64,000 nucleotides of DNA from Eledone cirrhosa. Taxonomy: Eukaryota. This document shows positions 2,850 to 58,584 of the stretch, piece after piece (the first letter of the stretch is position 1; the number at the start of each line of letters is the position of its first letter). Location of the stretch: assembly GCA_964016885.1 (NCBI GenBank), contig OZ024749.1, positions 13,826,001-13,890,000 on the forward strand, read 5' to 3'. Below the pieces are notes generated by a model, which saw only the letters and a list, made by a program, of their open reading frames with translations, ran no database searches and was not told the origin of the DNA. Made by a program: the position numbers and the translations under genes.

Positions 2850-3302
2850 GATTGGTGCTCTGAAATAGCGATGTATACATGAATGTCTGTATTGTATATT
2901 TGGCAATATACTGTATGTTTAATTAAAAACATTTTGAAGATCTTGCGCTATCATTTTAAAGTAGTGACTATGTCACTTACTTCTTTTTTCGGCAAAGGAA
3001 TGGAGAGAAGCTGACAGATTCAGTTTCACACTGTTGATGATTCTCAAAGCAAAGAAGTAAGTGACATAGTCACTACTTTAAAATGATAGCGCAAGGTCTT
3101 CAAAATGTTTATGTAGACTCTTTATTTTACAACCCCTTCTGTTGTTAATGGCTCTATTATCTTTCACTTTTTTAAACAAGGTTCACTGATTAATCAATGA
3201 ATATAGTTTTACAATAGATTAGAAGCACTCAACAAGAGTTTTCTGGAGTTATTAATATTAATTCAAAATATTAATAAATATAGACATTTACGTAATCAAA
3301 AT

Positions 3303-3370
3303 ATATTTTATTATATATATTTCGGAGGTACTGTGTTGTTTTCTCAGTACTTCCTCATCAGATAAAATAT
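3303..3370 (-). ncRNA. Type I hammerhead ribozyme
   Basis: atattttat-CTGATGA-ggaagtactg..cagtacctcc-GAAA-tatata-TA-ataaaatat: 9-bp stem I, about 9-bp stem II, palindromic stem III. Confidence 0.82.
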
Positions 3371-3784
3371 ATAAATTGATATATAATAAAATATATTTTG
3401 ATTACGTGAATGTCAATATTTATTAATATTTTGAATTAATATATATATATATATATATTTATCCAGGGAATGTAACGTGATGTTACTGTAGGTTCACCCA
3501 GGTGAGCACCCGATGTTTAGGTTCACGTCAGTGGCGAGGAGTAGAACTAGACAGAGTGTAATATAATAATACAAGTATGATTTGTTAAGCCTTCATTACG
3601 TTTATTGATTGGTGACGCGCGTTTCGCTATAGATCAGCTGTTGTAATGACAGAATGAACATATCTTCATTCTGTCATTACAACAGCAGAGGTCCGACGAG
3701 CTTTTGATTCCAGATCGAACCTTGAGCTGATCAATAGCATAACGCACGTCACCAATCAATAAACATTACGAAGGCTTAACAAAA

Positions 3785-3816
<32 letters not shown>

Positions 3817-3817
3817 C

Positions 3818-3859
<42 letters not shown>

Positions 3860-3861
<2 letters not shown>

Positions 3862-4105
3862 CACATGGCTTAGTGGTTAGAGCATTGGCCTTGCAATCGA
3901 AAGGTTGTGAGTTCAATTCTCAGACCGGGTGATGTGTTGTTTCCTTGAGCAAGACATTATTTCACATTGCTCCAGTTTACTCAGCTATAGAAATGAGATG
4001 ATAGGGACTGGGGTGAAATGATAGGGACTGGGGTCCCTATCATTCCACTGCAAAGTGGTCGTGGAGGTGCCACGGCAAAAAAGCACCCACCACTCACTGT
4101 AAATG
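3860..4105 (+). mobile_element. tRNA-derived SINE family B (other copies 30412-30560 plus, 36005-36333 minus)
   Basis: tggcttagtggttagagc A-box, gagttcaattc B-box, CORE-like ccttgagcaagaca...ttgctcca. Confidence 0.72.
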
Positions 4106-4780
4106 AGGCTCCCCGAAATATGTATAATGAAATAAATATGGTTTTATAAATATAGTTTCCATTTGTTTAATATCGTATATATAAATATGAGAGACGTAAA
4201 ATAAGAAAATTATAAAAATTAACTTACTTACTAAAATTTCACTCCAACTAATTAGTTTCTGAAAGGGAATAAACATAGTTTCCAAAGAAACATACGGAGA
4301 AGCCTTTCGTCATCAGGGAAGTCTATTCTCAGCTAAGTTTCCAGGCAATACGTGGACACAGGGAACTTATACAAAAATAATTCAGTGGAATTGTTCTGCA
4401 TCCCCATGCATTGAACCACAAAGTTACTAAGACAAAACCTATATATTTGCTGGCATAGGTATGCATCTGTATATATATGTTAGTAGATATACTAATTCTT
4501 TATAATTATCTCCAAATTATTTTGTCGAGCCAAAATTGGCCAAAACTGCTACTATAGTTCATAGTAACAGTCCGGTTGCTGCCTTCTTAACAAACCACTC
4601 TTCACTGATTGACCTCGATGTCACGTGATTGATTCTTTTGAATTTGCCACCGACGCAGTAGGCAGTGATTTTTTCAATGGCTTGGAACTTAGTCCACGCT
4701 TTGCTTTTTTCCATCCACTGAATTATTTTTGTATAAGTTCCCTGTGTCCACGTATTGCCTGGAAACTTAGCTGAGAATAG

Positions 4781-4862
4781 ACTTCCCTGATGACGAAAGG
4801 CTTCTCCGTATGTTTCTTTGGAAACTATGTTTATTCCCTTTCAGAAACTAATTAGTTGGAGT
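4781..4862 (+). ncRNA. Type I hammerhead ribozyme
   Basis: acttcc-CTGATGA-cgaaagg...cctttca-GAAA-ctaattag-TT-ggagt. Inverted identical copy at 4241-4322 (minus). Confidence 0.72.
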
Positions 4863-5027
4863 GAAATTTTAGTAAGTAAGTTAATTTTTATAATTTTCTT
4901 ATTTTACGTCTCTCATATTATTGTTCTGCATCCCCATGCATTGAACCACAAAGTTACTAAGACGAAACCTATATATTTGCTGGCATAGGTATGCATCTGT
5001 ATATATATGTTAGCAGATATACTAATT

Positions 5028-5101
<74 letters not shown>

Positions 5102-5783
5102 TTACACACATTTATAATTAACAATGGTTTTCTGAAGGCTTTCAGAAAGAAGCCCCAGTTAAATAAGCTACTCAATACATTAGGAGAGAAGATGCATATT
5201 TATTTTATATAGAAATGACTTCTACAGGACTAAAATTGTTTCAGTTGTATGAAATCATCATACCTGGAGGATTACAGATTTACAGGTGATAACCAAAAGG
5301 CTTGATCTGCACAGGTGATAACTAGAGAGACTGTAAATGTGGTTGGCATTATGAAGGATATCCAGCCGTAGAAACCAAACCAGAAACAGTTCTGTATGAG
5401 TGAGACACAGTCATTGATCTGGCCTGTCTCACAATGGTACAACTTGTCTAACCCATGCGAGCAGGGAAAAATGGAAAAATGGACATTAAATAGTGAAGAT
5501 GATGATGTTGATGAACTACAGCTCCACAGGTGATAACTGGAAAGGAGATACAGCTTCACAGTAATCATTGATTGGGTGGATGTTACAGATGCAAAGGTGA
5601 TCACTGTTGCCATGGATGATAATTGAGAAAGAGAAAGGATGGCATAGATCCATCAATTACTTCTATATAGATATCACCCCTCATCACACCAAGAGTTATC
5701 TATAATAAAATAGTAGAGTGTGATAAATATATCCATCCCATATACCCAGCTGGGTACCTAGAGTCTCAGATAAACAACCTTAC

Positions 5784-5894
5784 CGTGTAGATTTTCTTCA
5801 CCTCTTGTTCCAAAACATCTCCATTTTCCTTGATTGCAACAGAAATCTTCAATTCTTCAAACAGTTTTTGGACTTCAGCTAAGTTCCTGATGGC
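5784..5894 (-). CDS. AARS2: AlaRS coding exon 18
   Basis: AIRNLAEVQKLFEELKISVAIKENGDVLEQEVKKIYT (helical); gtag/gtaagg, phase 0. Confidence 0.8.
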
Positions 5895-5989
5895 CTACAA
5901 AGGTACATTGTAGTTATATATTAGTGGTTATAGGTTAGTGTTTTTACCACACACACCACTAGTAAGTTATAAGTAGGTACCTGTGTATC

Positions 5990-7892: not shown

Positions 7893-8029
7893 AGATATCA
7901 GACAAGTCCAGGATTGAACCCACAATCTTACAATCATGAGACCAACAACCTAACCACTATAAGTTGCACTTAATAGAGAATTTCATACACGCTTTATGCA
8001 AGTGACACTGAATACGTAAGATCATGTAT

Positions 8030-8300
8030 ATTTCACTCAATTTACTCTCAACAAAGTAGGTGATATACTCTTTATTCAAGTCACACTCAACAAAATAGGG
8101 CATAAACACTTTACTCAAGTGACACTTTCACACAATACATAAAATCATATACACTTCACTCAAGTTACACTCAATACATAAGGTCATGTAGACTTCACTC
8201 AAGTTACACTTGATATATAAGGCCATATAGACTTCACTCAAGTTACACTTAATATATAAGGTCATATACACTTCACTCAAGTTACACTCAGTATATATAG
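8030..8300. repeat. ~39-bp diverged minisatellite
   Basis: Recurring cttcactcaagttacact. Confidence 0.8.
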
Positions 8301-8319
8301 TCGTACATATTTTACTCAC

Positions 8320-8428
8320 ATCTTGAGCCAATTTTCCAGTAACACATGTCATTCGTTTCGTGGTGTGTGACACTCCAGAGAAGTTAGTGATGATAAATTG
8401 ACTGATATCTCTTGTGTTGTGGACATGA
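8320..8428 (-). CDS. AARS2: AlaRS coding exon 17
   Basis: HVHNTRDISQFIITNFSGVSHTTKRMTCVTGKLAQD; completes CTGTH across the junction; ccag/gtgagt. Confidence 0.9.
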
Positions 8429-13160: not shown

Positions 13161-16100
13161 GGAATAAAATTGCGGGTGTGCAAAATCAGATAGCTTTTAC
13201 ATTCAAGGGGAAATAATTCTGTAAAGATACAGAAAGTCACCCCTCCTACCACAACACTATCTTCTTTCTGTCTCTCTCACTAAACAAAATACAGTCTCAC
13301 CTCACCTCTTCTGTTTGCAGGGGAGGTAAGTATGTAAACATACAGAACGGCACCAAGTTCAAACTTGGGCGCTCTACCAAGTAAATATATCTCGAACAAA
13401 ATAAATAAATTAATAAAACCCGATAATAAAACATCAATGTATTCGCCATAATTACATTCACAACTTTACAATAAAACATTAATAAGAGAAATTAACGAAG
13501 TAAAGGTAAGATTAAAACCTAAACTTCGTGAATTTCCGGTAAAAGTATTCCGTGTTGTCTTAGCTTACGATAGTTACAATTGTGTGAGTGTGTGTGCATG
13601 TATATAAATATACCTGTAAACGTGTGTTTATAGGTATATTTATATAATTTATGTATGGTTGCATGTATATTTATATATATATATATATACACGACATAAC
13701 TCTCTTCTGCCAAGACAACAGAATGAGAGAGAAGCATACGTATATATTTATGTATGCATGTATGTATATATAAATTATTGTCTTATTTACAAAAATATTT
13801 TTCTAATGTGTTTAAAATTTCATATTGTGTCGTCTGGTTTTCTTCCATTTAATCACGACATAACTCTCGACTCACTCCCCTTCATTTACTTACTGTCTCA
13901 CACTCTCTCTTTTTCTCTCTTCCCCTCTCACACAATATCTCCTTTCTCTCTCTATTTGCCGGCCACTTCTCTTACATAGTCTTTCATCTGTCTCTCTCTC
14001 TTTCCACCTTTCTCTTTTTGTTTCCCCCTCTCTCATACTCTACACTTTCTACCTCCCACTCTCATTCTCAGATCCTTCTTTCTCTTTCTTTTCTTCTCTC
14101 TGCCTTACCTACTTTTCGCTCAACACCTCCTCGCTATCTGCCTCTCTCTCCCTCCTACCACTACACTAGCTCCTCTCTCTCTCACCTACCAAACCTAAAC
14201 ACTTCCACCTCATCTAACCTCTTCGTTCTCTCTCCTGGAATAAAATTGCGGGTGTGCAAAATCAGATAGCTTTTACATTCAAGGGGAAATAATTCTGTAA
14301 ACATACAGAAAGACACCCCTCCTACCACAACACTATCTCCTTTCTGTCTCTCTCACCAAACGATAAAGACTCTCACCTCACCTCTTCTCCGTTGGTAGGG
14401 GAGGTAAATATGTAAACATACAGGATGGCACCAAGTTCAAACTTGAGCGCTCTCCCAGGTAAAAATATCTCGAACAAAATAAATAAATTAATAAAACCCG
14501 ACAATAAAACATCAATGTATTCGGCATAATTACATTCACAAAATTATAATAAAACATTAATAAGAGAAACTAATGAAATAAAGTTAAGACTAAACCCTAA
14601 ACTTCGTGAAATTCCGGCAAAAGTATTCGTGTTGTCTGAGCAGACGATAGTTACATGTGTGTGTGTATATATATACCTGTAAACATACGTATATATTTAT
14701 GTATGCATGTATGTATATAAATTATTGTCTTATTTACAAAAATATTTTTCGAATATCGTGTTTAATATTTCATATTGTGTCGTCTGGTTTTCTTCCATTT
14801 AATCACAACATAACTCTCGACTCACTCCCCTTCATTTACTTACTGTCTCACACTCTCTCTTTCTTTCTCTCTTCCCCTTTCTCTATTTGCCGGTCACTTC
14901 TCTCTCTCTTTCTCTCTCCTCCTTCCTCTTTTGTCTCTTTCTCTCTGTCGCTGTTTCCATCCTCAACTCACTCTCTTTCTTTCTTTTTGTTTCCCCCTCT
15001 CTCTTACTCTTCACTTTCTACTTCCCACTCTCATTCGCAAATCCTTCTTTCTCTTTCTTTTCTTCTTTCCCTCTCTCTGCCTTACCTATTATTCGCTCAA
15101 CACCCCCCTCTCTCCCTCCAGCTCCTCTGTATTTCTCTGCCTCACTTCCTCTCTCTCTGTCATTACATCTGACTCCCTCCTACCACTACACTACTCCTCT
15201 CTCACTCACCTACCAAACCTAAACACTCCCACCTCATCTAACTTCTTCGTTCTCTCTCCTGGAATAAAATTGCGGGTGTGCAAAATCACATAGCTTTTAC
15301 ATTCAAGGGGAAATAATTCTGTAAAGATACAGAAAGTCACCCCTCCTACCACAACACTATCTTCTTTCTGTCTCTCTCACTAAACAAAAAACAGTCTCAC
15401 CTCACCTCTTCTGTTTGCAGGGGAGGTAAGTATGTAAACATACAGAACGGCACCAAGTTCAAACTTGGGCGCTCTACCAAGTAAAAATATCTCGAACAAA
15501 ATAAATAAATTAATAAAACCCGATAATAAAACATCAATGTATTCGCCATAATTACATTCACAACTTTACAATAAAACATTAATAAGAGAAATTAACGAAG
15601 TAAAGGTAAGATTAAAACCTAAACTTCGTGAATTTCCGGTAAAAGTATTCCGTGTTGTCTTAGCTTACGATAGTTACAATTGTGTGAGTGTGTGCATGTA
15701 TATTTATATATATATACACGACATAACTCTCTTCTGCCAAGACAACAGAATGAGAGAGAAGCATACGTATATATTTATGTAAGCATGTATGTATATATAA
15801 ATTATTGTCTTATTTACAAAAATATTTTTCTAATGTGTTTAATATTTCATATTGTGTCGTCTGGTTTTCCATTTAATCACGACATAACTCTCGACTCACT
15901 CCCCTTCATTTACTTACTGTCTCTTTCTTTCTCTCTTCCCCTCTTACACAACCTCTCCTTTCTCTCTCTTTTTGCAGGCCACTTCTCTCACACAGCTTTT
16001 TCTCTCTCTTTCCCCCTTTCTCTTTTGTCTCTTTCCCTCTGTCGCTGTTTCCATCTTATAGTCACTATCTTTCTCTTTCTTTTTGTTTCCCCCTCTCTCT

Positions 16101-19100
16101 TACTCAAATCTCTCTTTCTCTTTCTTTCTTACCCCCACCCTCTCTCCAGCTCCTCTGTATTTCTCTGCCTCACCTCCTCTCTCTCTGTCATTACATCTGA
16201 CTCCCTCCTACCACTACACTAGCTCCTCTCTCACCCACCAAACCTAAACACTCCCACCTCATCTAACCTCTCGTTCTCTCTCCTGGAATAAAATTGCGGG
16301 TGTGCAAAATCAGATAGCTTTTACATTCAAGGGGAAATAATTCAGTAAACATACAGAAAGACACCCCTCCTACCACAACACTATCTCCTTTCTGTCTCTC
16401 TCACCAAACAATAAACACTCTCACCTCACCTCTTCTGTTTGCAGGGGAGGTAAGTATGTAAACATACAGAGCGGTACCAAGTTCAAACTTGGGCGCTCTA
16501 CCAGGTAAAAATATCTCGAACAAAATAAATAGATTAATAAAACCATACAATAAAACATCAATGTATTATGGCGAATACATTGATGTTTTATTGTCGGGTT
16601 TTATTAATTTATTTATTTTCTTCGAGATATTTTTACTTGGTAGAGCGCCCAAGTTTGAACTTGGTGCCGTTCTGTATGTTTACATATTTATTTCTCCCGC
16701 AAACAGAGAAGAGGGGAGGTAAGAGTGTTTATCGTTTAGTGAGAGAGACAGAAAGGAGATAGTATTGTGGTAGGAGGGGTGACTTTCTGTATGTTTACAG
16801 AATTATTTCCCCTTGAATGTAAAAGCTATCTGATTTTGCACACCCGCAATTTTATTCCAGGGGAGAGAACGAGAGGTTAGATGAGGTGGAAGTGTTTAGG
16901 TTTGGTGGGTGAGAGAGAGAGGAGCTAGTGTAGTGGTAGGAGGGAGTCAGATGTAATGACAGAGAGAGAGGAGGTGAGGCAGAGAAATACAGAGGAGCTG
17001 GAGGGGGGGGGGTAAGAAAGAAAGAGAAAGAGAGATTTGAATAAGAGAGAGGGGGAAACAAAAAGAAAGAGAAAGATAGTGACTATAAGATGGAAACAGC
17101 GACAGAGAGAACAAAATAAATAAATTAATAAAACTCGATAATAAAACATCAATGTATTCGCCATAATTACATTCACAACTTTACAATAAAATATTAATAA
17201 GAGAAACTAACGAAGTAAAGGTAAGATTAAAATATAAACTTCGTGAAATTCCGGTAAAAGTATTCGTGTTGTCTGAGCAGACAATAGTTACATGTGTGTG
17301 TATAAATATACCTGTAAACATACGTATATATTTATGTATGCATGTATGTATATATAAATTATTGTCTTATTTACAAAAATATTTTTCTAATGTGTTTAAA
17401 ATTTCATATTGTGTCGTCTGGTTTTCTTCCATTTAATCACAACATAACTCTCGACTCACTCCCCTTCATTTACTTACTGTCTCACACTCTTTCTTTCTCT
17501 CTTCCCCTCTTACACAACCTCTCCTTTCTCTCTCTAAGTGCCGGCCACTTCTCTCTCCCTTCTCTTTTGTCTCTTTCTTTCTGTCGCTGTTTCCATCCTA
17601 TAGTCACTCTCTGTCTCTTACTTTTTGTTTCCCCCTCTTTCTACTTCCCTCTCTCATTCTCAAATCCTTCTTTTTCTTTCTTTTCTTCTTTCCCTCTCTC
17701 TGCCTTACCTACTATTCGCTCAACACACCCCTCTCTCTCTCCAGCTCCTCTGTATTTCTCTGCCTCACTTCCTCTCTCTCTGTCATTACATCTGACTCCC
17801 TCCTACCACTACACTAGCTCCTCTCTCTCTCACCTACCAAACCTAAACACTTCCACCTCATCTAACCTCTTCGACCTCTCTCCTGGAATAAAATTGCGGG
17901 TGTGCAAAATCAGATGGATTTTACATTCAAGGGGAAATAATTCTGTTAACATACAGAAAGACACCCCTCCTACCACAACACTATCTTCTTTCTGTCCCTC
18001 TCACCAACCAACAAACACTCTCACCTCCTCTCTTCTCCGTTGGGGGGAGAAGTAAATATGTAAACATACAGAACGGCACCAAGTTCAAACTTGGGTGCTC
18101 TACCAGGTAAAAATATCTCGAACAAAATAAATAAATTAATAAAACCCGATAATAAAACATCAATGTATTCGCCATAATTACATTCACAACTTTACAATAA
18201 AATATTAATAAGAGAAACTAACGAAGTAAAGGTAAGATTAAAACTTAAATTTCGTGAAATTCCGGTAAAAGTATTCGTGTTGTCTGAGCAGACGATAGTT
18301 ACAAATGTGTGTGTAAATATACCTGTAAACGTATGTATATATTTATGTTTGCATGCATGTACATAAATATATACATATGTTTACATGTATATTTATATAT
18401 ACGCGATATAACTCTCTTCTTCCAAGACAACAGAATGAGAGAGTAGCATATGTATATATTTATGTATGCATTAAATGTATATAAATCATTTTCGAATATC
18501 GTGTTTAATATTTCATATTGTGTCGTCTGGTTTTCTTCCATTTAATCACGACATAACTCTCGACTCACTCCCTTTCATTTACTTACTGTCTCACACACTC
18601 TCTCTTTCTCTCTTCCCCTCTCACACAACCTCTTCTTTCTCTCTTTTTTCTGGCCACTTCTCTTACACAACCTTTTCTCTGTCTCTTTCCCCTTTTCTCT
18701 TTTGTCTCTTTCCTCTGTCGCTGTTTCCATCCTATACACACTTTCTCCCTTTCTTTTTCTTTTTGTTTTCCCCTCTTTCTTACTCTGCTCTTTCTACTTC
18801 CCTCTCTCATTCGCAAATCCTTCTTTCTCTTTCTTTTCTTCTTTCCCCCTCTCTGCCTTACCTACTATTCGCTCAAACCCCCCCTCTCTCTCTCCAGCTC
18901 CTCTGTATTTCTCTGCCTCACCTCCTCTCTCTCTGTCATTACATCTGACTCCCTCCTACCACTACACTAGCTCCTCTCTCTCTCACCTACCAAACCTAAA
19001 CACTCCCACCTCATTTAACCTCTCGTTCTCTCTCCTAGAATAAAATTGCGGGTGTGCAAAATCAGATGGATTTTACATTCAAGGGGAAATAATTCTGTAA

Positions 19101-19445
19101 AGATACAGAAAGTCACCCCTCCTACCACAATACTATCTCCTTTCTGTCTCTCTCACTAAACGATAAACACTCTTACCTCCCCTCTTCTCCGTTTGCGGGA
19201 GAAATAAATATGTAAACATACAGAACGGCACCAAGTTCAAACTTGGGCGCTCTACGAAGTAAAAATATCTCGAAGAAAATAAATAAATTAATAAAACCCG
19301 ACAATAAAACATCAATGTATTCGCCATAATTACATTTACAAAATTATAATAAGGGAAACTAACGAAGTAAAGGTAAGATTAAACCCTAAACTTCGTGAAA
19401 TTCCGGTAAAAGTATTCGTGTTGATCGTCAGACGATCGTTACATG
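13161..19445. repeat. Tandem array of ~1.0-1.15 kb units with internal inversion
   Basis: Unit marker ggaataaaattgcgggtgtgcaaaatca at about 13161, 14237, 15261, 16285, 17885 and 19037. Reverse-complement segment at about 16566-17108. Confidence 0.92.
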
Positions 19446-19629
19446 TGTGTGTGTGTTTGTGCATGTATTTGTGTGTGTATGCTTGCGTGTGTGTGTCTAT
19501 ATATATGACTCGAGATCTCTTTGTGGTCGTCCGGTGTTAGAAAGAGCTCCCATATATAGATATGTATATATCTGTGTGTATGTGTATATATATATATATG
19601 TGTGTGTGTGTTTGTGCTTGTGCATATAT

Positions 19630-21600
19630 ATGGGAGGCAGAGAGTAGGAGATTTGCCAATGTTCTGCGACGGGAAGATCAGAGGCGTGCGGTGTTCCACA
19701 TTGCAAGGCAGTGTGTCAATGCAAATCAGGATGTTGTTGGAGATAAATGTGTCCGGGATGATGCCGGTGTACTTAGTGTCACGAATGACCAGAAAAAGGA
19801 GGCCTGGAAATGTCATTATGAGAGACTGATGAATGTGGAGAACGAATGGGAGAGAGAGAAATTACCCTTGGTAGATCCGACAGAGGGACCAGCTATTGAG
19901 ATTGACGAATATAGGGTCCAAGAGGCGATTAGGGAAATGAAAAATGGTAAGGCGGCCGGACCATCGGGAATAGTTGCTGAGATGCTGAAGGCATCAGGGG
20001 ACGTAGGCACTAAACTGGTTGCACGCATCATCAATCAGGCTATATATGGTGGTGTCATACCCAAAGACTGGTGCAGCAGTATTCTCATAAATTGCTACAA
20101 AGGTAAAGGGGATGCTTTGGAGAGGAGCAATTATAGGGGTATAAAACTGATAGATCAGGTTATGAAAGTGGCAGAAAGGATGTTAGCACAACTAATTAGA
20201 GAAAGGGTCAAACTAGATGAGATGCAGTTTGGTTTTGTGCCTGGGAAGAGTACAACAGATGCCCTCTTCTTGGTGAGACAAATGCAAGAGAGATTCTTAG
20301 AGAAGAATAAGCCACTATACTTAGCCTTTGTTGACCTAGAGAAGGCCTTTGATAGGGTACCCCGATCTGTCATCTGGTGGTCCCTAAGGAAGCTAGGTGT
20401 TGAGGAATGGCTTGTGAGGACAGTGCAAACTTTGTACAGAGGTACTCTCAGTAAAGTCAGGGTAGGAATGGAGTTTAGTGAGGAATTCCAGATACAAGTA
20501 GGAGTACATCAGGGTTCGGTCCTCAGCCCGCTCTTGTTCATTATAGTCCTCCAAGCCATAACAGAGGAGTTTAAGACTGGCTGTCCATGGGAACTTCTCT
20601 ATGCTGACGATCTGGCTCTTATAGCAGAATCAGTAGAGGAGCTAGAGAATAAATTCCGGCTATGGAAACAGCAGTTGGAAGCAAGAGGACTGAGAGTAAA
20701 TCTAGCTAAGACAAAAGTGTTGATGAGTAGAAAAGAGGACAAAACCCTGATTCCGTCAGGGAAATGGCCATGTTCGATATGCAGAAAAGGAACTGGCATA
20801 AATTCTATAAAATGCACACAATGCAGGTCCTGGGTACACAAGAGATGTAGCGGGATAGCAAGCAAACTAACAGGTAGGGAGAAATATGTATGCAGTAGAT
20901 GTACAGGGAAATTAGACAGTAGAAGTCGCACTGATAGACACATTTTTCAAATGCGAGAGGGCGCTATAGAAGTGGTGGATAGCTTCCGGTACCTAGGAGA
21001 TCAGATTAGCATGGGAGGAGGGTGTTCCGAGGCCATAGTATCTAGAATAAGGATGGGTTGGAAGAAGTTTAGGGAGCTGCTTCCTCTGTTGACGAAGAAG
21101 GGTTTCTCCCTGCGTACGAAAGGCCGGTTGTATGATGCCTGTGTGAGGAGCGCGATGCTGCATGGTAGTGAGACATGGGCAGCAACCGCAGAGGATATGC
21201 GACGGCTGGAGAGAAATGAGGCAAGCATGCTCCATTGGATGTGCAGTGTAAATGTGCGTGAACGACCCAGCATAAATGTGTTGAGAGAGAAACTGTGTCT
21301 GAGAGGGATAGAATGTAGTGTACGGGAGAGGAGACTGAGGTGGTATGGACATGTGATGCGCATGGAAGATGACCGATGGGTGAAGAAGTGCCAGGAAATG
21401 CCAGTTGAAGGAAGACGTGGTAGAGGTAGACCACGAAAAACATGGGCGGAGGTGGTGAGAACAGACCTCAGATCATTGAAGCTCACGGCGGAGATGACGA
21501 GGGACCGTGACGAGTGGAGAGATGCTGTGCTGAATAAGACCCGTCCCACCCTTGCAAGCAGGGAAAAGCGGACGTAAAATGATGATGATGATGATGATGA
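19630..21600 (+). mobile_element. RTE-clade LINE, 5'-truncated, uninterrupted RT ORF with PHD-like Zn finger
   Basis: ORF to stop 21577 with KAAGPSG, NYRGIKL, QFGF, FVDLEKAFD, GVHQGSVLSP, YADD and RLRWYGH...RGRPRKTW. Very short 3' UTR with (ATG)n tail. No endonuclease domain present. Confidence 0.93.
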
Positions 21601-30269: not shown

Positions 30270-30830
30270 CTAGAAAATAGCATAGACACAATCATGTATA
30301 TATGTGAGTTTGTATATCATCATTTTAACATCCACTTTCCAATGGGTTCTTCTCAGTAGGGTATCTCTCATATTTACACACACACACACACACATATATA
30401 TATGTTGTGAAGGCACATCATGGCTGAGTGGTTAGAGAATTTGATTTGCAATTGTGAGGTTGGGATTTCAATTCCCAGACCGGGCAATGTGTTATGTCCT
30501 TGAGCAAGATACTTTATTTAACGTTGCTCCTTTTACCTGGATTTGCAACTGACAGATAGTATTAGCAATTGGATAGACCAATGAAAACACTGTTTCCTCA
30601 ATCCAATTTGATGAGTTCCACCCCACTCGTTAAGCAAATGAGATCTGGGATCTTGTCGATCGACTGTCGACATATATATATATATATTCATACACACACA
30701 TATACATATACAACACAGACACATATATATATATGAAATGATTCAGGACCATATTACCCACTCTACTACCCCAAGTATTGAGTAGTCTGGTGGGTTCTGG
30801 TCCACCTGGTATCTCACCACGCCCTTTCTG

Positions 30831-31999: not shown

Positions 32000-33289
32000 T
32001 ATATTAATAATGGTTTCTAACTAATATACATCTTCAACGAACCTTATCATCTGATATGTTTTCTTTTCACATACATATATACAGACATGTCAACTCTCCC
32101 TGCCCAACAGGGAGATCTACCATCCACTTAGGGGTGGGTGAGAGATGTTTTCTCTAGTGAAAATGGGTATAGCTTTCATTATGTAAAATCTCCCTGTCAT
32201 TATTACCATAACAGAAGTCCGGCGAGCTTTTGATTCCAAAGTCGGTCCCAATCGATGCAGATCGAACTTTGAGCTGATCAATCGCGAAACGTGAGTGACA
32301 CCTCAAAAAATCTAATGAAAATTTAACACCTTGTCGATATATATATATATATATATCGACGAGGTGTTAAATATATATATATATAGGAAAAAGTATGACC
32401 CCGACGGCAGAGCTCAATCCATTTCGACGGCTATTTCTATTGTCTAGAAATAGCCGTCGAAACGGCTTGAGCTCTGCCGTCGGGGGTCATACTTTTTCCT
32501 ATTACCCACTCTACTACCCTAAGTATTGAGTACTCTGGTGCGTTATGGTCCATCTGGTTCCTTACCACAATTCCTTCGTTCACCGAAATATATATAGCAG
32601 TAATAAACGAAGCCAAATTTTAAACATTTGACTTATTTATTTTATTTTATTTTACATTACTCTGGAGTAACCAAACCCACCTGCGCACTTCGTCGAGTGC
32701 TCCAAATCTGCATTCTGAGGTGTTGGTATACAACCAACATATACTCAAATTATATATATATATATATAAAACACCTCGTCGATATATATATATATTTACA
32801 TACACAAATATTAACTGGCCATATACGCACAAACATCAACACATTAATTCACCTCGCTCTGAGAGCAAACAGCTATAATCAATAACGATAACTCTATTCT
32901 GTAAAGTTACTTTAAGTAAATTATTTCAGAGTTACTTCCCTTCTATAACTAACCATCGTTATCGAGAACAGCTAAAGCAGAGCTTTCAAACATTTTACAT
33001 TAGCGAAGAAATACTTATGAAAAATAAAATTATTCTTGACACATTAATTAAGTTTAGTTAGCGATAGGAAATAAATTAAATTAATAAAGAGAAACAATTA
33101 AATATCACCAGTCACGTGACATCAGTCACATGCCACGAGTCACATTTCTAATCGTACATAGAGTTGTCACATCTTAATATATACTTCACTGTCAAATATT
33201 GGTAAACATTGATCTATGTTCCGCTACTACATGTTTATACTACGCTGGTCACATGAAATAACAACGACACAGGTTAATAGTACAGCGAT

Positions 33290-36395: not shown

Positions 36396-36753
36396 TAACG
36401 CCCATTTTTCTACACTAGCATATATATGAGGTGTGGTCAAATTTGGACCTCGAAACATTGAGTAGCACTTTTGTTCTGTGTATGAACATAAATAAATAAT
36501 AATAATATATATATATATATATATATTAATAAAAGGAATTCTAACTTTGTCTGATTTACTCGTTTTATTTACAATCCTTTAAAATTTATAATGGTATTAT
36601 AATGAAATAGTATGGTAGAATATTAAATGTTAAGTGTTAATTGAACAAGTACTTTCATGCTTTCTTAATCTTCAGGTTCATAATGTGTGGTGACAGTCAA
36701 GTTTGCAATTTTCAGCTGTTGAAAATTGCAAACTTGACTGTCACCACACATTA

Positions 36754-36792
36754 TGAACCTGAAGATTGCGAAAGCATGAAAGTACTTGTTCA
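36754..36792 (+). ncRNA. Hammerhead ribozyme (copy of PLE 3' motif) in palindrome arm
   Basis: Identical to 47147-47185. A mirrored minus-strand copy at about 36642-36680 has a mutated stem II. Confidence 0.78.
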
Positions 36793-36990
36793 ATTAACAC
36801 TTGACATTTAATATTCTACCATACTATTTCATTATAATACCATTATAAATTTTAAAGGATTGTAAATAAAACGAGTAAATCAGACAAAGTTTGAATTCCT
36901 TTTATTAATATAATCTTAATTTCATTTTAATTTCATTTTACGTCCGCTTTTCCCTGCTTGCAACTATACACAATCATACACACCCGTATG

Positions 36991-37019
<29 letters not shown>

Positions 37020-37022: not shown

Positions 37023-38140
37023 CAAGCCATGTATAAAGAAACAGTCAGCAAGGTTAGAATTAACAACGAATATAGTGAAGAGTTTAGCGTAAAAGTTGTT
37101 CATCAGGGCTCCTACTTAGCCCCCTACTATTTATTATTGCCCTTCAGGCTATAACAGTGGAGTTCAGGACCGGCTGCCCATGGGAACTCCTATACGCAGA
37201 TGATCTAACGCTCATATGAATCAATGGCCGAACTAGAGAAGAAATTCCAAACATGGAAGCATGGCCTAGAATCAAAAGGCCTTAAAATTAACCTGTCTAA
37301 GATTAAAGTTCTAGTTTGTAGGAAGGAAAATAGGGCACCGGTCCCATCCGGGAAATGGCCATGCTCAGTGTGTAGGAATGGAGTAGGTAGAAACACCATT
37401 TTATGTCCCAAATGCAAAGTATGGGTGCATAAAAGATGTAGTGGGATCACAGGTAAGCTAACTAAGAACATAGATTTTATATGTGGCCGGTGCTCTGGTG
37501 CAATAACTAGCAGCAAGTGACTACAGGATACTAGCTCATTCCATTGCACAGATGGTTCTATAGAAATAGTGGACACCTTCCGTTACTTGGGTGACAAAAT
37601 CAGCAGTGGTGGAGGGTGCTCTGAAAGTACAGTAGCTAGAGTCAGAACTGGATGGAAAAAGTTCAGAAAGCTTATACCACTATTAGCCGCTAAAGGGTTC
37701 TCTCTAAAAATGAAAGGCAGGCTGTATGATGCCTGCATACGAACAGCAATGTTGCATGGCAGTGAGACCTGGGCATTGTGTGCAGAGGATATACACAGAC
37801 TGGAGAGGAACGAAGCTTGCATGCTCCGCTGGATGTGTAATAGTAATATACGTGAACGGCAAAGCATAAACGAACTAAGGGAAAAATTAGAAATAAGAGG
37901 GATCAGATGTTGTTTACTCAAGAGAAGACTACATTGGTATGGTCACGTGATGCGCATGAAAGACGACAGCTGTATAAAAAAGTGCAGGGCAATAAAAATA
38001 GACCATAGCCACAGAGTAGGCAGACCCAGAAAAACCTGGGACGACTTGATAAATTCCGACCTCACACACACCTCTCCAAGACAATATCACTGGACCGAGA
38101 TCTTTGGCGCTACACAGTAATACAGAAGACCCGCCTTACC
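37020..38140 (+). mobile_element. Decayed RTE-clade LINE fragment (related subfamily)
   Basis: GCPWELLYADD, GKWPCSVC..., FRYLGDKISSGGG, RLHWYGH, GRPRKTW with stops and frameshifts. Confidence 0.88.
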
Positions 38141-43802: not shown

Positions 43803-43929
43803 TATGTACACGTACATATGTAGCGGTGGCTGTACACATACATATATGTATACAGACGTACAGTAGTATGTATATATATATATATATATATATATACATA
43901 CATGCAACCATATATATATGTACGTATGG

Positions 43930-46900
43930 ATTCACCGAACATTTATTATAATGCTCGGTGTGTTTGTAAACAAACATCCCGTATTAAGCCGGAGTGTCTA
44001 TCAACCATCGTTGCTCGTTTGTTCAACACTGACAAAGGAACGCTGTACCAGTTTCAAGTTTATTAGCTATCGTCAGCAACGTATACCTTCCTGCCAGATT
44101 GTTGAACGTCTGAAAGTATATACTTTCCTTATGCATATTAACGGCTGAGTAGCCAATTTGCATATCGAGTGGGTTAAATTTCGTTTCATTTTTTTAATAT
44201 ATACATAAACTCTGAAATTAAGAATTTAGCTGAAATTATACCAACAGTTATCAAAGATACAAGAGAAAGCCTACCACAACCCCCTTGGATGTCAGAACTA
44301 AACGAAAGAAATTTGGAAAACAAAACACATCGAATAAGAAAAGAAATGTGGAAGACATGGAAAAAATTTCTTAACATAAGAAAACAAAACTTCTGGAAAG
44401 CATACAAATGCGAAAAATATGTCGAAATGGCTCTCTCTAGCGGCACCCATACTCCCTCGTAAATACCTAATTACAGAAATTGCAGGAGAACCAGAAGAAG
44501 AAACGAAACTCCGATGGGAACTTACATTGACAAAATTAAGGACCGACATCTCCATTTCTCAACGTAAACAATCCTGCTACAAAGCCAAATATGAAGCTAT
44601 CGATGACCAAATTGAAGTTGAAATTTCAAAGCTAACGACTGGTATTATAGCTGAAAAACTACGAGAACTATGGATCAGAGATATCTCAAAAGAAGAAAAC
44701 AAATCAAGAAAGGTATGGCAGCAGAAACAATTATTTCTCGACGAATATGCTGTAAATTACGGTAAAGACTCTGGAACCCTGAGAAAAAGCATTAAAAGTG
44801 GACAATCTCACCAACACAACATACGCCAGAACACGTGCCAACATAAACACTCACCTTACCTTGAATCAAAGAAGAACTACGGTAATAACTCTTCACTTTT
44901 TCTACAAAAACACCCTAACGCACACAACATGAACAAAAAGCACAAACACGATAAATATTCCTTTGACCAGACCATGAGAAGTAGTAAAATCAGGAGATCA
45001 TTCTCAAGATCTCAACAGAGACTACCCACAAGGAACGGGGAAACAAAACGTAGAATAACCAGATCACTCTCAAGATCTCAACAGAGATTACCCACAAGAA
45101 ACTGGGCGAAAAAACGATCTAAACCTGAAAGCAAACCTAGGTCATTTCCCCAGATTGTTAAAAATAATGCTAACAAGAAATGGAAAAATAATATACATAA
45201 TACCAAAAATAGTACAAAATACATAACGAAACTTAGACCTATTATAGCTGGTCCAACATGCCCACCCACCGTCTAAGCAATTTTGTTGACATTATTTTGA
45301 AACCACTATGTATTCACATACCCAGTTTTAACCAGGATGATATCGACTTCCTGTCCCATCTTCCCAAAACCACGGAAACGAATTCACTTCTACTTAGTTT
45401 TGATGTGGTAAGCCTTTACACCAACATTACACATGATTTAGGAATAAAGGCGGTTAAATACTGGATGGAAAAACATAGAGAAGTGATTCTTCCCATCAGA
45501 TTCACGGCACCATTTATATTAGACGCAGTTAAACTTATTCTGGAAAACAACACTTTCTTCTTCAATGGAAAGAATTACATCCAAATTAGAGGCACAGCGA
45601 TGGGAACGAAGTTTGCTCCCGTTTACGCGAACTCTGTAATGGGATACTTAGAACAACAACTCTACCAAGAAATAGAGGAAAAATATAGTACTGACTTTAG
45701 AAAATACATTGAAAAATCTTGGAAGAGATACCTTGACGACTGTTTCATCATCTGGACAGAATCTCTAAATACTCTGGATGAGTTCAATATCATCCTGAAT
45801 AACCTACACCCATCTCTCCAATTCACAAAAGAGATGAGTAGTACCAAATTACCATTCCTAGATATAATGATAATCAAAAACGACACCACCATTACCACGG
45901 ATATATATTATAAACACATAGACACCCATCAATATCTGGATTTTAAGTCGTGCCATCCACCTCTTACAAAACGCAACATCCCATACTGCCTAGCCAGAAG
46001 AATTTGTACCATTGTAGAAGATACGAATACCAGGTACAAACGCCTAACAGAACTAAGAGAATTTTTGCTCAAACAAAAATACCCATCTCTACTTATAGAA
46101 AATGGCATACAGCAGGCTATAAAAATACCTATACAACAATTTAGGACAACCCAAGGAAGAAGAAACCAAGAACTCGTCATACCATTTATAATGACACACA
46201 AACCATGTCACCAGAATATCTTCAACACTGCCAAAGCAAACCTACCGATCATTGCTCAAAGTAATGAATTAAAAGGCTTAATCACAGATCGATTTTTGAC
46301 TCTTAGTAAAAGACAGCCGAAAAATCTGAAGCAATTACTAACAAAAGCAAAGTTTGACCTTAACAACAAAGACCAATCATTATTCACTGTATCTAAATGC
46401 AATGATAGTCGATGTGGCACATGTCAATCCATACACTACGGTCAATATATGAAAACAAAAACTGGAAAAATATTCCCAAATGCAAATATGAACCGCAAAA
46501 GCAGAAATCTAATTTACTGCATTAAATGCCCGAATTGTGAAGAACTATATGTCGGTCAAACTGGAAATGCACTATCGGAACGTGCACGGGTACACCGACA
46601 GCAAATCAGAGACCCAAATATCCGTCAGATACCCCTAAGTAACCATCTAGCAGCATGTGGTCAGGGAATATTTATAATATTCCCATTCTACAAATTACAC
46701 AGCCCAAGTGAAATCAAGAGAAAAATCCAAGAAAAGAATTTTATTGATAAATTCAAACCCAAGCTAAATGAACAATAATAATGGGGTATTAATCCTACCA
46801 TGGCTATGACTATGACCACTAACAACAACAACAACAACAATAATAATAATAATAAAAGTGATGTTGATGGTGATGTTTACTAGAAAATGCTATTTTCATC

Positions 46901-47345
46901 ATTTCTAAAAATAGCAAAACAATTGATGCTTTGGATAGGGTCAATTAGTAGTCGTTAGACATGCTCAACCAACCGTGATGCCTAAACCACTCAGCTTTAG
47001 TAATCCAGTGAAACTACACACCGATTGGTCGAAATACAGTTTGCAAGATTTAGCATTCTGGAGCCACTTTTCACTGAATATAAGGCACAAAATTTACCCA
47101 TCTCATTACAGTTGAAAATTGCAAACTTGACTGTCACCACACATTATGAACCTGAAGATTGCGAAAGCATGAAAGTACTTGTTCAATTAACACTTAACAT
47201 TTAATATTCTACCATACTATTTCATTATAATACCATTATAAATTTTAAAGGATTGTAAATAAAACGAGTAAATCAGACAAAGTTGGAATTCCTTTTATTA
47301 ATATAATCTTCTATACACAATCATACATACCCGTGTATATTTATC
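43930..47345 (+). mobile_element. Penelope-like element (Neptune-like), frameshifted and apparently internally deleted
   Basis: RPIIAG, SFDVVSLYTNI, GTAMGTKFAPVYAN, RYLDD, LPFLD, S.HP RT motifs; CxxxRCxxC linker; GIY-YIG nuclease LIYCIKCPNC..LYVGQT...R..H. Flanked by (TA)n tracts; 3' hammerhead motif. Confidence 0.92.
47147..47185 (+). ncRNA. Minimal type I hammerhead ribozyme in PLE 3' region
   Basis: tgaac-CTGAAGA-ttgc gaaa gcat-GAAA-gtac-TT-gttca: stem I tgaac/gttca, short stem II, palindromic stem III. Confidence 0.8.
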
Positions 47346-47665: not shown

Positions 47666-48344
47666 TAGGGAAACCACCGTCACACCTCAATAAATGTAAT
47701 GAAGATCTAACACCTTGTCCTTTTCATTATTAAAATAAATAAATAAATAAATAAATCATTATTATTATTATATTATTACTTTCCATTATGAGTTCAAATC
47801 CCACCAAGGTTAACTTTGCCTTTCATCCTTACGGGGTCAATAAAATAAAGTACCAGTAATGTACTGGGTAATTGTACCAAAAGTAGAAACAATTATTATA
47901 TTATTATTACTATTATATATATATATGTGTGTGTGTGTGTAGATATATGTATTACTATTATCATATTATATGTATATGCATATATATGTGAGTGTGGATG
48001 CAGACATACTCAGATCACACACTAACAAATAATGACATTGGGAGATTTCCCAAGTGCACACTACTACTTAATGTGATGACTACACTTGTGATGTCAACTA
48101 TTGGTATATCATATTTGTGTGTATATAGACATAATAATACACATTGCTATTAACAAGCTGCCAACAGGTCGTTGACCTAATGGCAACCTTGTCCCCCACC
48201 CCACACCTTTTATTTTACAGTGATTTGTCAGTAGGGAGAGGAAGGGTGCTGCGTATATCCCAGATCAGTCAACCCCCCCCCCCCCCATTCGACGAGAAGA
48301 TCTCCAACAGACTCTAGGGTGGGTGAGAGATGTCAGCTTTCATT

Positions 48345-50410: not shown

Positions 50411-50989
50411 TGTAATGTAATGCGGGAGAAGTATTGACAGATGATAGAACTCATCTGATGGGGACTGCAATGTGAACCCTCTTTCTCTTAGCCCTACAGA
50501 ATCCCTTCCCCTTGGTTCCAGTTTTGTCTGGCCCCTCTGGTCCTGCCCAAATCACCTCTGAACAGCTGTTGGTCACTGTAGGGCCAACCAACAGAAGTGG
50601 GATATGCCACTGATGATAATTCCAACTGCCATTGTGGACACAAATGTCTTTATTATGGCATCCTCATATACAGCAAGTAGAAATTTGAATATATTTATTT
50701 TAATAGTGTAAAATTACACATCCATGTACACCAGGTTCAAACACAGAGGAACCAAACTCCCACTGTCATCACCTCCATCTCTCACGCCCTACTTATCACA
50801 TACATGTACACCAGGTCCAAACACAGAGGTGCCAAACTCCCACTGTCATCGCCTCCATCTCTCTCGCCCTCCTTATCACATACATGTAAACCAGGTCCAA
50901 ACACAGAGGAGCCAAACTCCCACTGTCATCGCCTCTGTCCCTCCTGCCCTCCCCATCCCTCACTATTATGAGCAAATGGGGTCTAAAGC

Positions 50990-51220: not shown

Positions 51221-51345
51221 AACACCTTCTAGCTGACACCAATCTTGAAGATGCCTGCACACTTAACGACCTTGAAACCTTAACACCCCAGTTGAGGCTC
51301 TATGTGCAACACTGGATGGGTGTGGTGTAGCAACTCGATAAGAAG

Positions 51346-51386
<41 letters not shown>

Positions 51387-52960: not shown

Positions 52961-52999
52961 AGTACTATATATTGTTGTGTGGTTTAAAGTGAATGTGTT

Positions 53000-55900: not shown

Positions 55901-56138
55901 CAATATTTTATTGTGAGGTGGCTGTGTAGTACATGTATGTTGTGTGGGTTGTGCTGCCAATATTTTATTGTGAGGTGGCTGTGTAGTACATGTATGTTGT
56001 GTGGGTTGTGCTGCCAATATTTTATTGTGAGGTGGCTGTGTAGTACATGTATGTTGTGTGGGTTGTGTTGTCAATATTTTATTGTGAGGTGGCTGTGTAG
56101 TACATGTATGTTGTGTGGGTTGTGCTGCCAATATTTTG
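53000..56138. repeat. 57-bp minisatellite related to the 50-bp array
   Basis: attgtgaggtggctgtgtagtacatgtatgttgtgtgggttgtgctgccaatatttt; 19-aa periodic ORFs on both strands. Confidence 0.97.
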
Positions 56139-56667
56139 TCCATTTCTCAACATTCTTCACTCTATCCCAAACCATTTTGGAAATCTAAAGAAACATTATA
56201 TCTAATGTTATTCTCTTGTCTGACAATATTGGTTGATATAACATATAGACAGTTACACATCCCTAGAGTGACACATATTGCTATTGATACATACACACAC
56301 TTGCACACACACACAGCTACACACTTACATACCTACACATACACACACATACACTTATGGTTGGTATAACATATTGACAATTTTACACATCCTAGAGTGA
56401 CACGTATTGGTATTAACACACACACACACACATATATACACACGTACACAGCTACACACACACAGAGCTACACAGAGCTGCACACACACACAAATGCACA
56501 TACAACCACAGAAAGACCCCCCCCCCACACACACACACACATCCACACCCACATAGGAAGTCTACCAAACAAATCCGCCAGTTTTTCAGTTTCCCATTTT
56601 ATACTCTTCACACATCATTGCTTCAACACGCCTGAATATATACAGAAACACACCAGTATATATATAC

Positions 56668-56699
<32 letters not shown>

Positions 56700-56714
56700 A
56701 TATAGAATGTACAT

Positions 56715-57485
56715 AATGCAGATCTTGGGTACACAAGCGATGTAGTGGGGTAGCAGGCAAAGTAAAAGGTAGGGAAAACTACATATGCAGTAGATGCTCA
56801 CGGAAATTTGACAGTAGAAGTCGTAGTGATAGACACATCTTTCAAATGCAGGTAGGATTTATAGAGGTGGTTGATAGCTTCGGATACCTAGGCGATCAGA
56901 TTAGCAAGGGGGGAGGGTGCTCCGAGGCCATAGCATCTAGAATAAGGACGGGTTGGTAGAAGTTTAGGGAGCTGCTTCCTCTGTTGACAAAGAAGAGTTT
57001 CTCCCTACAAACGTAAGGCTGGTTATATGATGCCTGTGTGAGATGTGCAATGCTGCATGGTAGTGAGACATGGGCAGCAACTGCGGAGGTTATGTGACGC
57101 CTGGAGAGAAATGAAGCAAGCATGCTCTGTTGGATGTGCATGAACAACCAAGCATAGACGAGTTGAGAGAGAAACTGTGTATAAGAGGAATAAGCTGTAG
57201 TGTGCAGGAGAGAAGACTGCATTGGTATGGATATGTGGTGCGCATGGAGGATGACTGCTGGGTAAAGAAGTGCCAAGAAATCCCAGTGGAAGGAAGATGC
57301 AGTAGAGGAAGACCACAAAAATCATGGGTAGAGGTGGTGTGTTCTGACCTCAGATCGCTGAAGCTCACAGTGGAGATGACAAAGGACCATGACAAATGGA
57401 GAGATGCTGTACTGAATAAGATCCGTCCCACCCTTGCAAGCAGGGAAAAGCAGACGTAAAATGATGATGATGATGATGATGATAT
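56715..57485 (+). mobile_element. Decayed 3' fragment of the same RTE family as 19630-21600
   Basis: High nucleotide similarity to 20820-21600; ends ...ASREKQT* followed by (ATG)n. Confidence 0.9.
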
Positions 57486-57590
57486 ATATATGTTATATGA
57501 TATATATGATATATATATCCATAGAAAAGGTAAAGGAAAGAAAAGTGCTCTAACAGAGCTATTTAATTACATAATAAACAACACAATATA

Positions 57591-57668
57591 ATTATTCCAT
57601 TACCAAAGGTTTCAGGAGACTAGACGATCCTTACAGAAATGTCCAGCTCTTTCATCAGATGAAATAAT
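57591..57668 (-). ncRNA. Type I hammerhead ribozyme
   Basis: attatttcat-CTGATGA-aagagctggac...gtctagtctcct-GAAA-cctttgg-TA-atggaataat: all three helices form, GUA cleavage triplet. Confidence 0.85.
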
Positions 57669-57693
57669 TATAATGTGTTGTTTATTATGTAAT

Positions 57694-57726
<33 letters not shown>

Positions 57727-58584
57727 TTAAAAAAAAAAAAAATGACTTCACTTGTAGTTCTAAACAATTTAATTTTATAATATTATAATTTTACAATTTG
57801 GTTTTGTATATCTAATAAATTCTTTGTTAACTTTGGTGGGGAGATTTTAAAGATTCCTGGTTAACTTTCCTGGAGAACTTTCTCGCATTCATCGGTGGCA
57901 ATTGTCAATCAGTTTGACAATTGCCACCAACAAATGCGAGAAAGTTCTCCAGGAAAGTTAACCAGGAGTCTTTAAAAATCTCCCCACCAAAGTTAACAAA
58001 GAACTTATTAGATATACAAAACCAAATTGTAAAATAATAATATTATAAAATTAAATTGTTTAGAACTACAAGTGAAGTTATTCTTTCCCTTTTTTCAAAT
58101 ATACCTAACTGTACCAAGGATTTCACACATTTTCCAATATATGTGTGTGTGTGCAGAGACACCTATATATACAGTAACACACCTGTATATATATACAGTA
58201 ACACACCTGTATATATATACAGTAACACACCTGTATATATATACAGAGACGTCTATATATACAGTAACGCACCTGTATATCAGTATTTGACTGGTATTTT
58301 GTTTTATCTACCCCAGGGAGATGAAAACCAAAATTTACTTTGGTGGGATTTGAACTTAGAATGTAACAGATTGTAACTAAATGCTGCAACACATTTCTTC
58401 TGATGTTTTAATGATTCAACCAATCTTCAGAAAAACCCCTACATGTCCAATACACACCAAAAACGTTAAAGTGAGGAAGTAAACACAACAAAACTGATTA
58501 AGAAGCATTGAAGTAAGAGTCGAGACTGAATGATTTCTAATTTCAGTACAAGACCAAGGCTACTCCACCAGAAACCACCAGAGA

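Follow-up and report, generated by a model that had tools for sequence, protein, structure and literature searches.

Short fold-back palindromes of Eledone cirrhosa with a fixed fold point and unequal ends: probable insertions of Penelope-like elements

Introduction

How do short inverted repeats of quite different sequence come to be folded in the same way? A 64-kb stretch of the 3.0-Gb genome of Eledone cirrhosa (contig OZ024749.1, positions 13,826,001 to 13,890,000; hereafter the window), which is AT-rich and holds many microsatellites, raises this question with eight fold-back palindromes, named here E1 to E8 in window order. An initial annotation had read them as ultra-short insertions of several families of Penelope-like elements (PLEs) carrying hammerhead ribozymes, and had suggested that the nascent cDNA snaps back on the ribozyme stems. 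The origin of the inverted, tailed insertions of PLEs is named as an open question in PMC8557442.

On balance, we favor the reading that the palindromes are short insertions of several PLE families, in which two copies of the pseudo-long terminal repeat (pLTR) stand head to head with one tailed and one short end, and which are likely formed anew at each insertion from two cDNAs. Five observations carry this reading. The palindromes belong to repeat families, E5, E6 and E8 have PLE parents, the segment concerned lies upstream of the open reading frame (ORF) in full-length E6, the fold point is fixed, and one tailed end is paired with one short end. The structure is of a generally known kind; what is added here is a sharp and testable rule for the inverted insertions of PLEs.

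Results

Position of the fold point

Positions within a family take the first base of the hammerhead core as their origin; E5 is the exception, its zero being a motif 60 nt downstream of the core. Solo copies begin at the same family-specific site at which the palindromes fold, and relative to the core the modal 5' end lies at -68 in E2, -44 in E6, -28 in E8 (a broad mode), -19 in E3, -13 in E7 and +45, inside loop II, in E5. In E5, 46 of 56 junctions are no more than 7 nt from the mode. Genome-wide, 668 E6 loci have their fold no more than a few bases from ACAGTTG, in many micro-variants of the junction, compared with 10 loci around stem III or the cleavage site and 2 at a control site, although the ratio of 668:10:2 is approximate because the ACAGTTG pattern permitted a wider gap (14 versus 8 bases).

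A TATA-like 7-mer (at most one mismatch) is located 26-31 nt upstream of the modal 5' end in all six families tested (Fisher p 0.006, background fractions 0.06-0.16), E1 and E4 being omitted for want of a usable mode. This is the spacing expected between a TATA box and an initiator (Inr). In E5-related subfamilies, the spacing of TATTTA(A/T)...TYAGTC is kept while loop II diverges. The distance of the main fold from the TATA-like box is constant, whereas that from the ribozyme varies, which argues against the idea that ribozyme helices set it. Judged from these promoter-like signals, the dominant fold point is likely the transcription start of a TATA+Inr promoter. Two other explanations of the fold point were rejected, namely a 3' splice site, since the modal ends include AG (E5, E6) or have none (E2), and assembly chimeras, since each family has its own fold point, the two ends are asymmetric and the arms have diverged.

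Junctions and ribozyme helices

Samples taken in order of position, with their anchor downstream of the ribozyme (30 loci for each of E2, E3, E6 and E7), gave 120 pieces. Of these, 45 start at the hotspot, 25 start upstream of it and 50 have an internal start; 27 ends fall on helices versus 26.3 expected. This set includes an E3 end cluster at +18, an indel artefact of a shorter reference, which is absent from the set of 249 pieces that takes in partner pieces and uses a longer E3 reference (hotspot 98, upstream 32, internal 116). In the larger set, internal 5' ends fall on helices 34 times versus 37.7 expected, so the enrichment for which the initial annotation had proposed a test is at the level of chance.

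The cleavage site behaves differently, with 17 compatible junctions versus 7.3 expected among the 249 pieces (nominal p 0.0015; 15 independent, 9 in E7). A minority of junctions thus fall at stem III, stem I or the cleavage site, and the cleavage site is a minor second hotspot. The excess of 5' ends is indirect evidence that the hammerheads may cleave themselves at the predicted site. An 8.7-kb palindrome of two full-length copies also has its centre at the cleavage site, and this palindrome, the hotspot and the excess together suggest that the fold tracks likely RNA 5' ends, mainly the transcription start and sometimes the ribozyme cut.

Three junctions of the window had been placed on ribozyme stems, and they fare unequally. 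The junction of E7 (57564-57695) does overlap stem I by 13 nt, and the same point is also the cleavage site. The junction of E5 (32383-32502), assigned to stem II, is found in loop II, some 6 nt short of that stem's 3' strand. The junction of E2 near 3380, assigned to stem I, is actually 17-23 nt upstream of the core.

Pairing of arms

Over all samples, 321 distinct head-to-head junctions comprised 221 pairs of a tailed and a short end, 15 of two tailed ends, 6 of two short ends and 79 with an untyped end; the mixed type therefore accounts for 221 of the 242 pairs in which both ends could be typed. Twelve of the 15 tail-to-tail pairs come from E1 and E4, where the tandem continues, and the 8.7-kb palindrome also obeys the rule. 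The two arms reach equally far in 125 pairs, while the tail arm is 5'-shorter in 67 and the short arm in 29. In an earlier set, 13 of 42 truncated tail arms lay wholly within the tail. The E6 centre occurs in both polarities, its two most frequent forms numbering 13 and 10.

Incomplete arms that start at the 5' end of the partner are mostly 15-34 nt long (30 of 39), in all six families that have them. A ribozyme barrier as the cause of these short arms was rejected, since their length is the same in all families whatever the ribozyme distance. Junctions of three pieces, in which a truncated arm, a short snap-back piece and a full arm follow one another, were found at four sampled loci (L299, L160, L030, L211) and in E3 of the window.

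Variants common to both arms are in clear excess over shuffled pairs (129 versus 28.9 in 54 E6 palindromes; 28 versus 3.7 in 68 E5 palindromes), and in a few palindromes (L017, L307) the two arms differ in subfamily haplotype. Junction forms are numerous, with 21 forms in 46 E6 junctions and 40 in 44 E5 junctions, which suggests that the palindromes are likely made anew and not copied from a master. As further observations, E6 positions -11 to -7, beside stem I, form a hypervariable patch in which the two arms of a palindrome often disagree (L115, L120, L320), and in the family references most short-end sites are followed by TA-rich bases of the element that could pair with a (TA)n primer.

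Families and their parents

Each of the eight fold-backs is a member of its own abundant repeat family. Exact-pattern counts, which tally arms rather than insertions and miss diverged copies, were 19,807 for E5, 7,644 and 3,607 for E6, 638 for E7, 496 for E3 and 88 for E2, and DNA searches returned 1,146 candidates for E1, 1,508 for E4 and 2,294 for E8. The assignment to several PLE families by the initial annotation is supported by parents with a GIY-YIG ORF for E5, E6 and E8, and by the two 3' ends and (TA)n targets of all eight families.

One element had been described as the 3' tail of a PLE at 43930-47345, and E6 (36522-36912) indeed matches 47108-47310 at 98-99%. The start needs correction to near 44205, as 43925-44177 belongs to an unrelated ninth hammerhead family on the minus strand. 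In the E6 parent, Pfam GIY-YIG scores above its cut-off and RVT_1 (E 5e-6) below its own, and atlas look-alikes agree. The PLE end is contiguous with the ORF side in 40 of the 40 scored among 2180 candidates. The parent is a 4211-bp tandem unit with the palindrome segment immediately before the ORF, so the segment is both 3' end and 5' leader. At 20 loci, the E6 pLTR stands in sense directly upstream of the ORF in 11, only inverted pieces are seen in 3 and neither in 6, and some full-length copies begin at -46 and -41. Tandem full-length E6 units at one locus (L579, G000:C4:322584000-322593999) have two long frames each (476 and 775 aa, stop to stop), which may be a conserved frameshift or a defect of that array.

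For E5, the endonuclease (EN) read from the translation has CNCPDRSTC, CNLC and CKH at locus L154, as in the Hydra-clade description (PMC8557442). By the motifs of this predicted protein, the E5 parent is a Hydra-clade PLE: it has a CxCX5C linker, has CxxC and CxH flanking E and N, lacks CCHH and targets (TA)n. The E8 parent shares 46% protein identity with the E6 PLE by tblastn and is continuous with the sequence upstream of E8. For the E6 and E8 parents, the linker CNDSRCGTC before the C-terminal EN has the form described for the Neptune clade (CX2-5CxxC), to which these parents may belong, with Nematis as an alternative; a Neptune assignment would also call for the phylogeny of the reverse transcriptase (RT). 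E1 (about 319 bp) and E4 (528 bp) are non-coding tandem units with one type I hammerhead each, and E4 arrays show the 528-bp spacing. A PLE fragment upstream of one E2 locus (L057) was rejected as parent because it is a nested piece.

Hammerhead ribozymes

Seven elements had been said to carry whole or partial hammerheads. A type I fold, read by eye, is present in seven of the eight family references, but it is whole in only four of the eight window copies, those of E2, E4 (twice), E6 and E7 with both descriptors combined. A scored motif scan of the window found 4 cores at a score of at least 30 versus 0.03 in 30 block shuffles, and a second descriptor found 5 matches versus 0 in 30 shuffles; the two descriptors overlap in part, and a strict motif scan yielded 1 core only. 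The motifs are thus above background in the shuffle comparison that the initial annotation had proposed. Rfam gave no hammerhead among the matches listed for the window (150 of 174) or among the 24 for 2900-5100, and among the matches listed its weak matches at these elements are microRNA models.

The E1 family has a CUGAGGA core, overlooked before and decayed in the window copy. The E3 family has CCGACGA, with a mutated GAAA in the window. The E5 parent has a U3-A8 core (U3-U4-G-A-N-A8-A9), in which N varies among 11 distinct copies and the minimum free energy structure is a three-way junction; the E5 copy of the window retains just its 3' half. E8 fails the type I fold in its family reference, with C in place of U16.1 and no clear stem I.

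Several side observations concern these ribozymes. In the Hydra-type family of E5 (L104, L154, L165, L273, L531), the TATA-like box and the 5' strand of stem II overlap, with the initiator-like motif placed in loop II, so that transcripts starting there would carry half a ribozyme, and the palindrome GAGCUC in loop III is a possible kissing or dimer signal. The ninth family (43925-44177, minus strand) has CUGACGA, stem III CUAG and a six-pair stem I with wobble variants across copies; it is frequent in the fetched loci, often with inverted pieces, and is unconnected to the neighbouring PLE.

Elements of the window

All eight inverted repeats are real. Seven were recovered by self-blastn at or within a few bases of the coordinates given before, and the eighth, E2 (3255-3442), which self-blastn masked as low complexity, was seen by eye in the sequence and then mapped to its family. 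No matches among E1 to E8 were found by self-blastn, in agreement with their description as mutually unrelated. Their limits had been placed nearly correctly, except that every element runs 35-110 nt further on one side only, and this addition is the tail. A tail on a single side is present in all eight elements and was absent from the earlier coordinates. The features are as follows.

2847..3052, minus strand: E1, tail-bearing arm, 95% to family reference -5..200, from the tandem hammerhead unit of about 319 bp, CUGAGGA core decayed
3051..3110, plus strand: E1, opposite arm, truncated, family positions 61..120
3172..3384, minus strand: E2, tail-bearing arm, whole type I hammerhead at 3372-3301, stem III TATATA
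3379..3438, plus strand: E2, short-ended arm, positions 43..102, overlap of 6 nt, beginning at or just before the cleavage site (cleavage product from 50)
3466..3639, minus strand: E3, tail-bearing arm, truncated within the ribozyme
3634..3663, minus strand: E3, snap-back piece of 30 nt at the presumed transcription start, positions -33..-4
3665..3783, plus strand: E3, short-ended arm, CCGACGA core, GAAA mutated in this copy
4184..4389, minus strand: E4, short-ended inverted arm, hammerhead at 4320-4242
4390..5030, plus strand: E4, partial tandem of a tail piece and one 528-bp unit, hammerhead at 4783-4861, tail end, retrozyme-like, no long ORF seen
32385..32438, minus strand: E5, short-ended arm, by family mapping
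32442..32579, plus strand: E5, tail-bearing arm, starting at the Inr-like AGTC in loop II of the parent's U3-A8 hammerhead and holding its 3' half
36527..36719, minus strand: E6, short-ended arm, reaching the presumed transcription start, positions -44..148
36718..36998, plus strand: E6, tail-bearing arm, minimal hammerhead with core at 36759, tail split by a 46-bp insert (36918-36963)
44205..47345, plus strand: parent PLE of E6, 5'-truncated, about 830 nt lost internally relative to the 4211-bp unit; TATA-like box at 47079, presumed start at 47108, hammerhead core at 47152, short end at about 47300, tail end at 47345
57514..57671, minus strand: E7, tail-bearing arm, whole hammerhead at 57672-57587, beginning at the family hotspot (-13)
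57659..57699, plus strand: E7, short-ended arm, beginning at the 3' strand of stem I, which is the cleavage site, position 58, overlap of 13 nt
57743..57908, minus strand: E8, arm without tail, by family mapping
57908..58137, plus strand: E8, tail-bearing arm, beginning at the Inr-like TCAGT, hammerhead-like core doubtful

Solo pieces elsewhere in the window (30752-30820, 32202-32328 and 47666-47732) are one tail-only piece of E5 and two pieces of E3.

Discussion

A possible mechanism

In the mechanism that we propose, the fold would mark where transcription starts at a TATA+Inr promoter and, in a minority of cases, the hammerhead cleavage site. The short-end and tail-end sites, which are 60-270 nt away from the RNA 5' end, would be where reverse transcription begins, and a parallel exists in the lizard element PAc, for which two start sites were shown in vitro (PMC11167929). 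Each of the two cDNAs would be primed on its own side of the cut (TA)n target and would likely run off the RNA at its 5' end, and both arms would usually come from one source element and probably from one RNA. At the RNA end, the cDNA may fold back for about 15-34 nt and form a bridge of sense polarity, which could anneal to the partner cDNA to give a perfect palindrome; alternatively, microhomology could join it to flanking DNA or to a partner that is truncated. The ribozyme would be a passenger, its helices guiding only a small minority of junctions. When the short and tail ends are taken as two RT starts of the PAc type, an account with two cDNAs is the simplest one. More tentatively, since we hold it possible rather than probable, PLE transposition may be a programmed form of twin priming, in which an enzyme dimer starts a short-end and a tail-end cDNA, one on each side of the target cut, and strong-stop run-off at the RNA 5' end (a capped start or a ribozyme-cut end) snaps back about 25 nt as a bridge.

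Several points weigh against this account. The TATA test was made post hoc, after the hotspots had been seen, and in AT-rich DNA; the start site is presumed from the DNA sequence; no clear cap-derived G was resolved before the start; and the Penelope promoter of D. virilis is described as internal and TATA-less (PMC2377424). The 1.5 kb upstream of 15 E2 and 15 E3 loci held no parent with an ORF, and none was found for E7, whose upstream sequence was followed for 85 nt only. The short arms and the junctions of three pieces could stem from deletions that the palindromes, being unstable, suffered later, and the concordance of arms is equally expected from a single hairpin or from gene conversion at a later time. 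Stops of tail arms show no preference for the short-end site (8 versus 7.0), where a block on the same RNA would predict a pile-up. Finally, some samples were ranked by query similarity or anchored close to the hotspot (E1, the first E6 samples and E8).

Other explanations

The strongest competitor, which we regard as unlikely but worth keeping in view, is a hairpin that is trimmed afterwards. One strand, either the sense cDNA or, as has been suggested for PLEs of rotifers, an antisense RNA, would prime itself, both arms would be copied up to the tail, and the endonuclease would trim one of them at the short-end site, either ahead of integration or in its course. The high concordance of arms and the short snap-back arms fit such a course, and its components have been proposed: PMC3846280 has self-priming, and PMC8557442 has the tail resolved by the endonuclease. 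Against it, the short end coincides with an RT start site in vitro (PMC11167929), the tail-only pieces facing start-to-short arms (13 of 42) require a first strand cut from its own primer, and the discordant haplotypes of L017 and L307 show arms that differ within one palindrome. Snap-back self-priming, as the initial annotation suggested it, is thus retained in part: the inverted arms of 15-34 nt agree with it, but snap-back of a single cDNA without an extra cut fails to give the pairing of tail and short end when either arm is truncated.

The specific form of that suggestion, in which the nascent cDNA snaps back on stem I, II or III and the stems set most junctions, is improbable, and as the main route it is refuted. 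It can draw on the 13-nt overlap of the window E7 with stem I, on two further E7 pieces (near-duplicates) with a 23-nt overlap, on an E7 hotspot 5 nt from stem I, and on four E6 palindromes centred on the palindromic stem III. These cases are outweighed by the missing helix enrichment, by the 668 versus 10 loci of E6, and by E5, for which pairing of the stem would put the junction on the 5' strand of stem II. None is found there, the nearest being at -71 and -50, and the range from -22 to -7 takes in about 90 of the 112 ends. Of the E7 junctions at the cleavage site, four show no overlap whatever. Slightly less probable still are non-autonomous units that move as whole hairpins, either as DNA transposons resembling MITEs (transposable elements of the miniature inverted-repeat type) or as palindromic master RNAs. 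The fixed size and the nearly end-to-end match of 40 of the 40 scored among 671 E6 candidates are what such units would give, but the ends are asymmetric with PLE tails, the junctions vary base by base, variants are symmetric between arms rather than inherited arm by arm, and the arms are contiguous with PLE ORFs in long copies. A MITE or foldback DNA transposon in particular should have symmetric, jointly inherited inverted repeats, and was rejected on the asymmetric ends, variable junctions and symmetric variants.

Relation to known systems

Twin priming of L1 joins two target-primed cDNAs head to head by microhomology. Compared with it, the second start site is fixed here, the arms overlap and duplicate sequence, and most cDNAs reach the RNA 5' end. 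Among PLEs, inverted 5' copies and one-sided tails are standard anatomy (PMC8557442), and self-priming at palindromic head-to-head junctions as well as TATA/Inr motifs in a pLTR were described in PMC3846280. As here, D. virilis Penelope, Adineta Pen and the Naiad and Hydra PLEs have a head-to-head inverted truncated copy and a tail at one end (PMC8557442, PMC3846280, PMC2377424), and, in the same sources, known PLEs share palindromes situated at the 5' end of the pLTR, a start site within that pLTR, (TA)n as target and GIY-YIG at the C terminus. Unlike those, the products described here are pLTR-only, of fixed size and present in hundreds to thousands per family, their tails measure 35-110 nt versus 30-40 nt, and the fold point and the pairing of tail and short end have been quantified.

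For PAc, two RT start sites bound the tail near the RNA 5' end, both target strands are cut and extended, a dimer is predicted, and uncleaved RNA is used so that ribozyme cleavage is not needed (PMC11167929). Its start sites are called non-homologous there, whereas the short-end sites here adjoin TA-rich motifs that could pair with the target, and the accessible portion of that paper leaves inverted copies without explanation. The minimal PLE hammerheads of PMC4209133 share with ours the type I folds, palindromic stem III, bulge before stem II and the U3-A8 variant, while in E5 a presumed promoter inside loop II splits the ribozyme. The same paper, in its accessible part, reports pairs of minimal hammerheads on opposite strands 100-700 bp apart in Schistosoma and offers no mechanism for them. 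E1 and E4 resemble non-LTR retrozymes, as described in PMC7229834 and bioRxiv 10.64898/2026.07.22.740005, in their tandem units with a type I hammerhead each, but differ in their PLE tail and short ends and inverted arms. In our literature search, to which older subscription papers and supplements were out of reach, no published statement of a start-site fold point or of the tail/short pairing rule was found.

The genome offers thousands of natural reaction products that fold at the presumed 5' end of the RNA and pair a tail with a short end, and the rule yields concrete predictions for the existing in vitro PAc assay. If programmed twin priming is true, it would explain the inverted pLTRs and one-sided tails of all PLEs by one rule. 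PLEs would then be a genome-wide factory of perfect hairpins and a likely source of double-stranded RNA (dsRNA) for A-to-I editing in hosts such as this one. The hairpins of this genome could feed the high dsRNA and editing load of cephalopods reported in PMC5625713. Such palindromes also risk being misfiled as MITEs or microRNA hairpins.

Other content of the window

Inside an array of related repeats at 13161-19330, a 1.08-kb palindrome (16033-17111) has arms at 93%, and a 270-nt piece of its arm matched no fetched locus. At 50427-50507 on the minus strand lies an HDV-like ribozyme (Rfam CPEB3 model, 35.3 bits versus a gathering score of 35), possibly at the 5' end of a long interspersed nuclear element (LINE). 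A LINE ORF with RT and a PHD finger is present at 19541-21577 (plus strand), with a related fragment at 37521-38120 (plus strand), both of which we take to be RTE-like.

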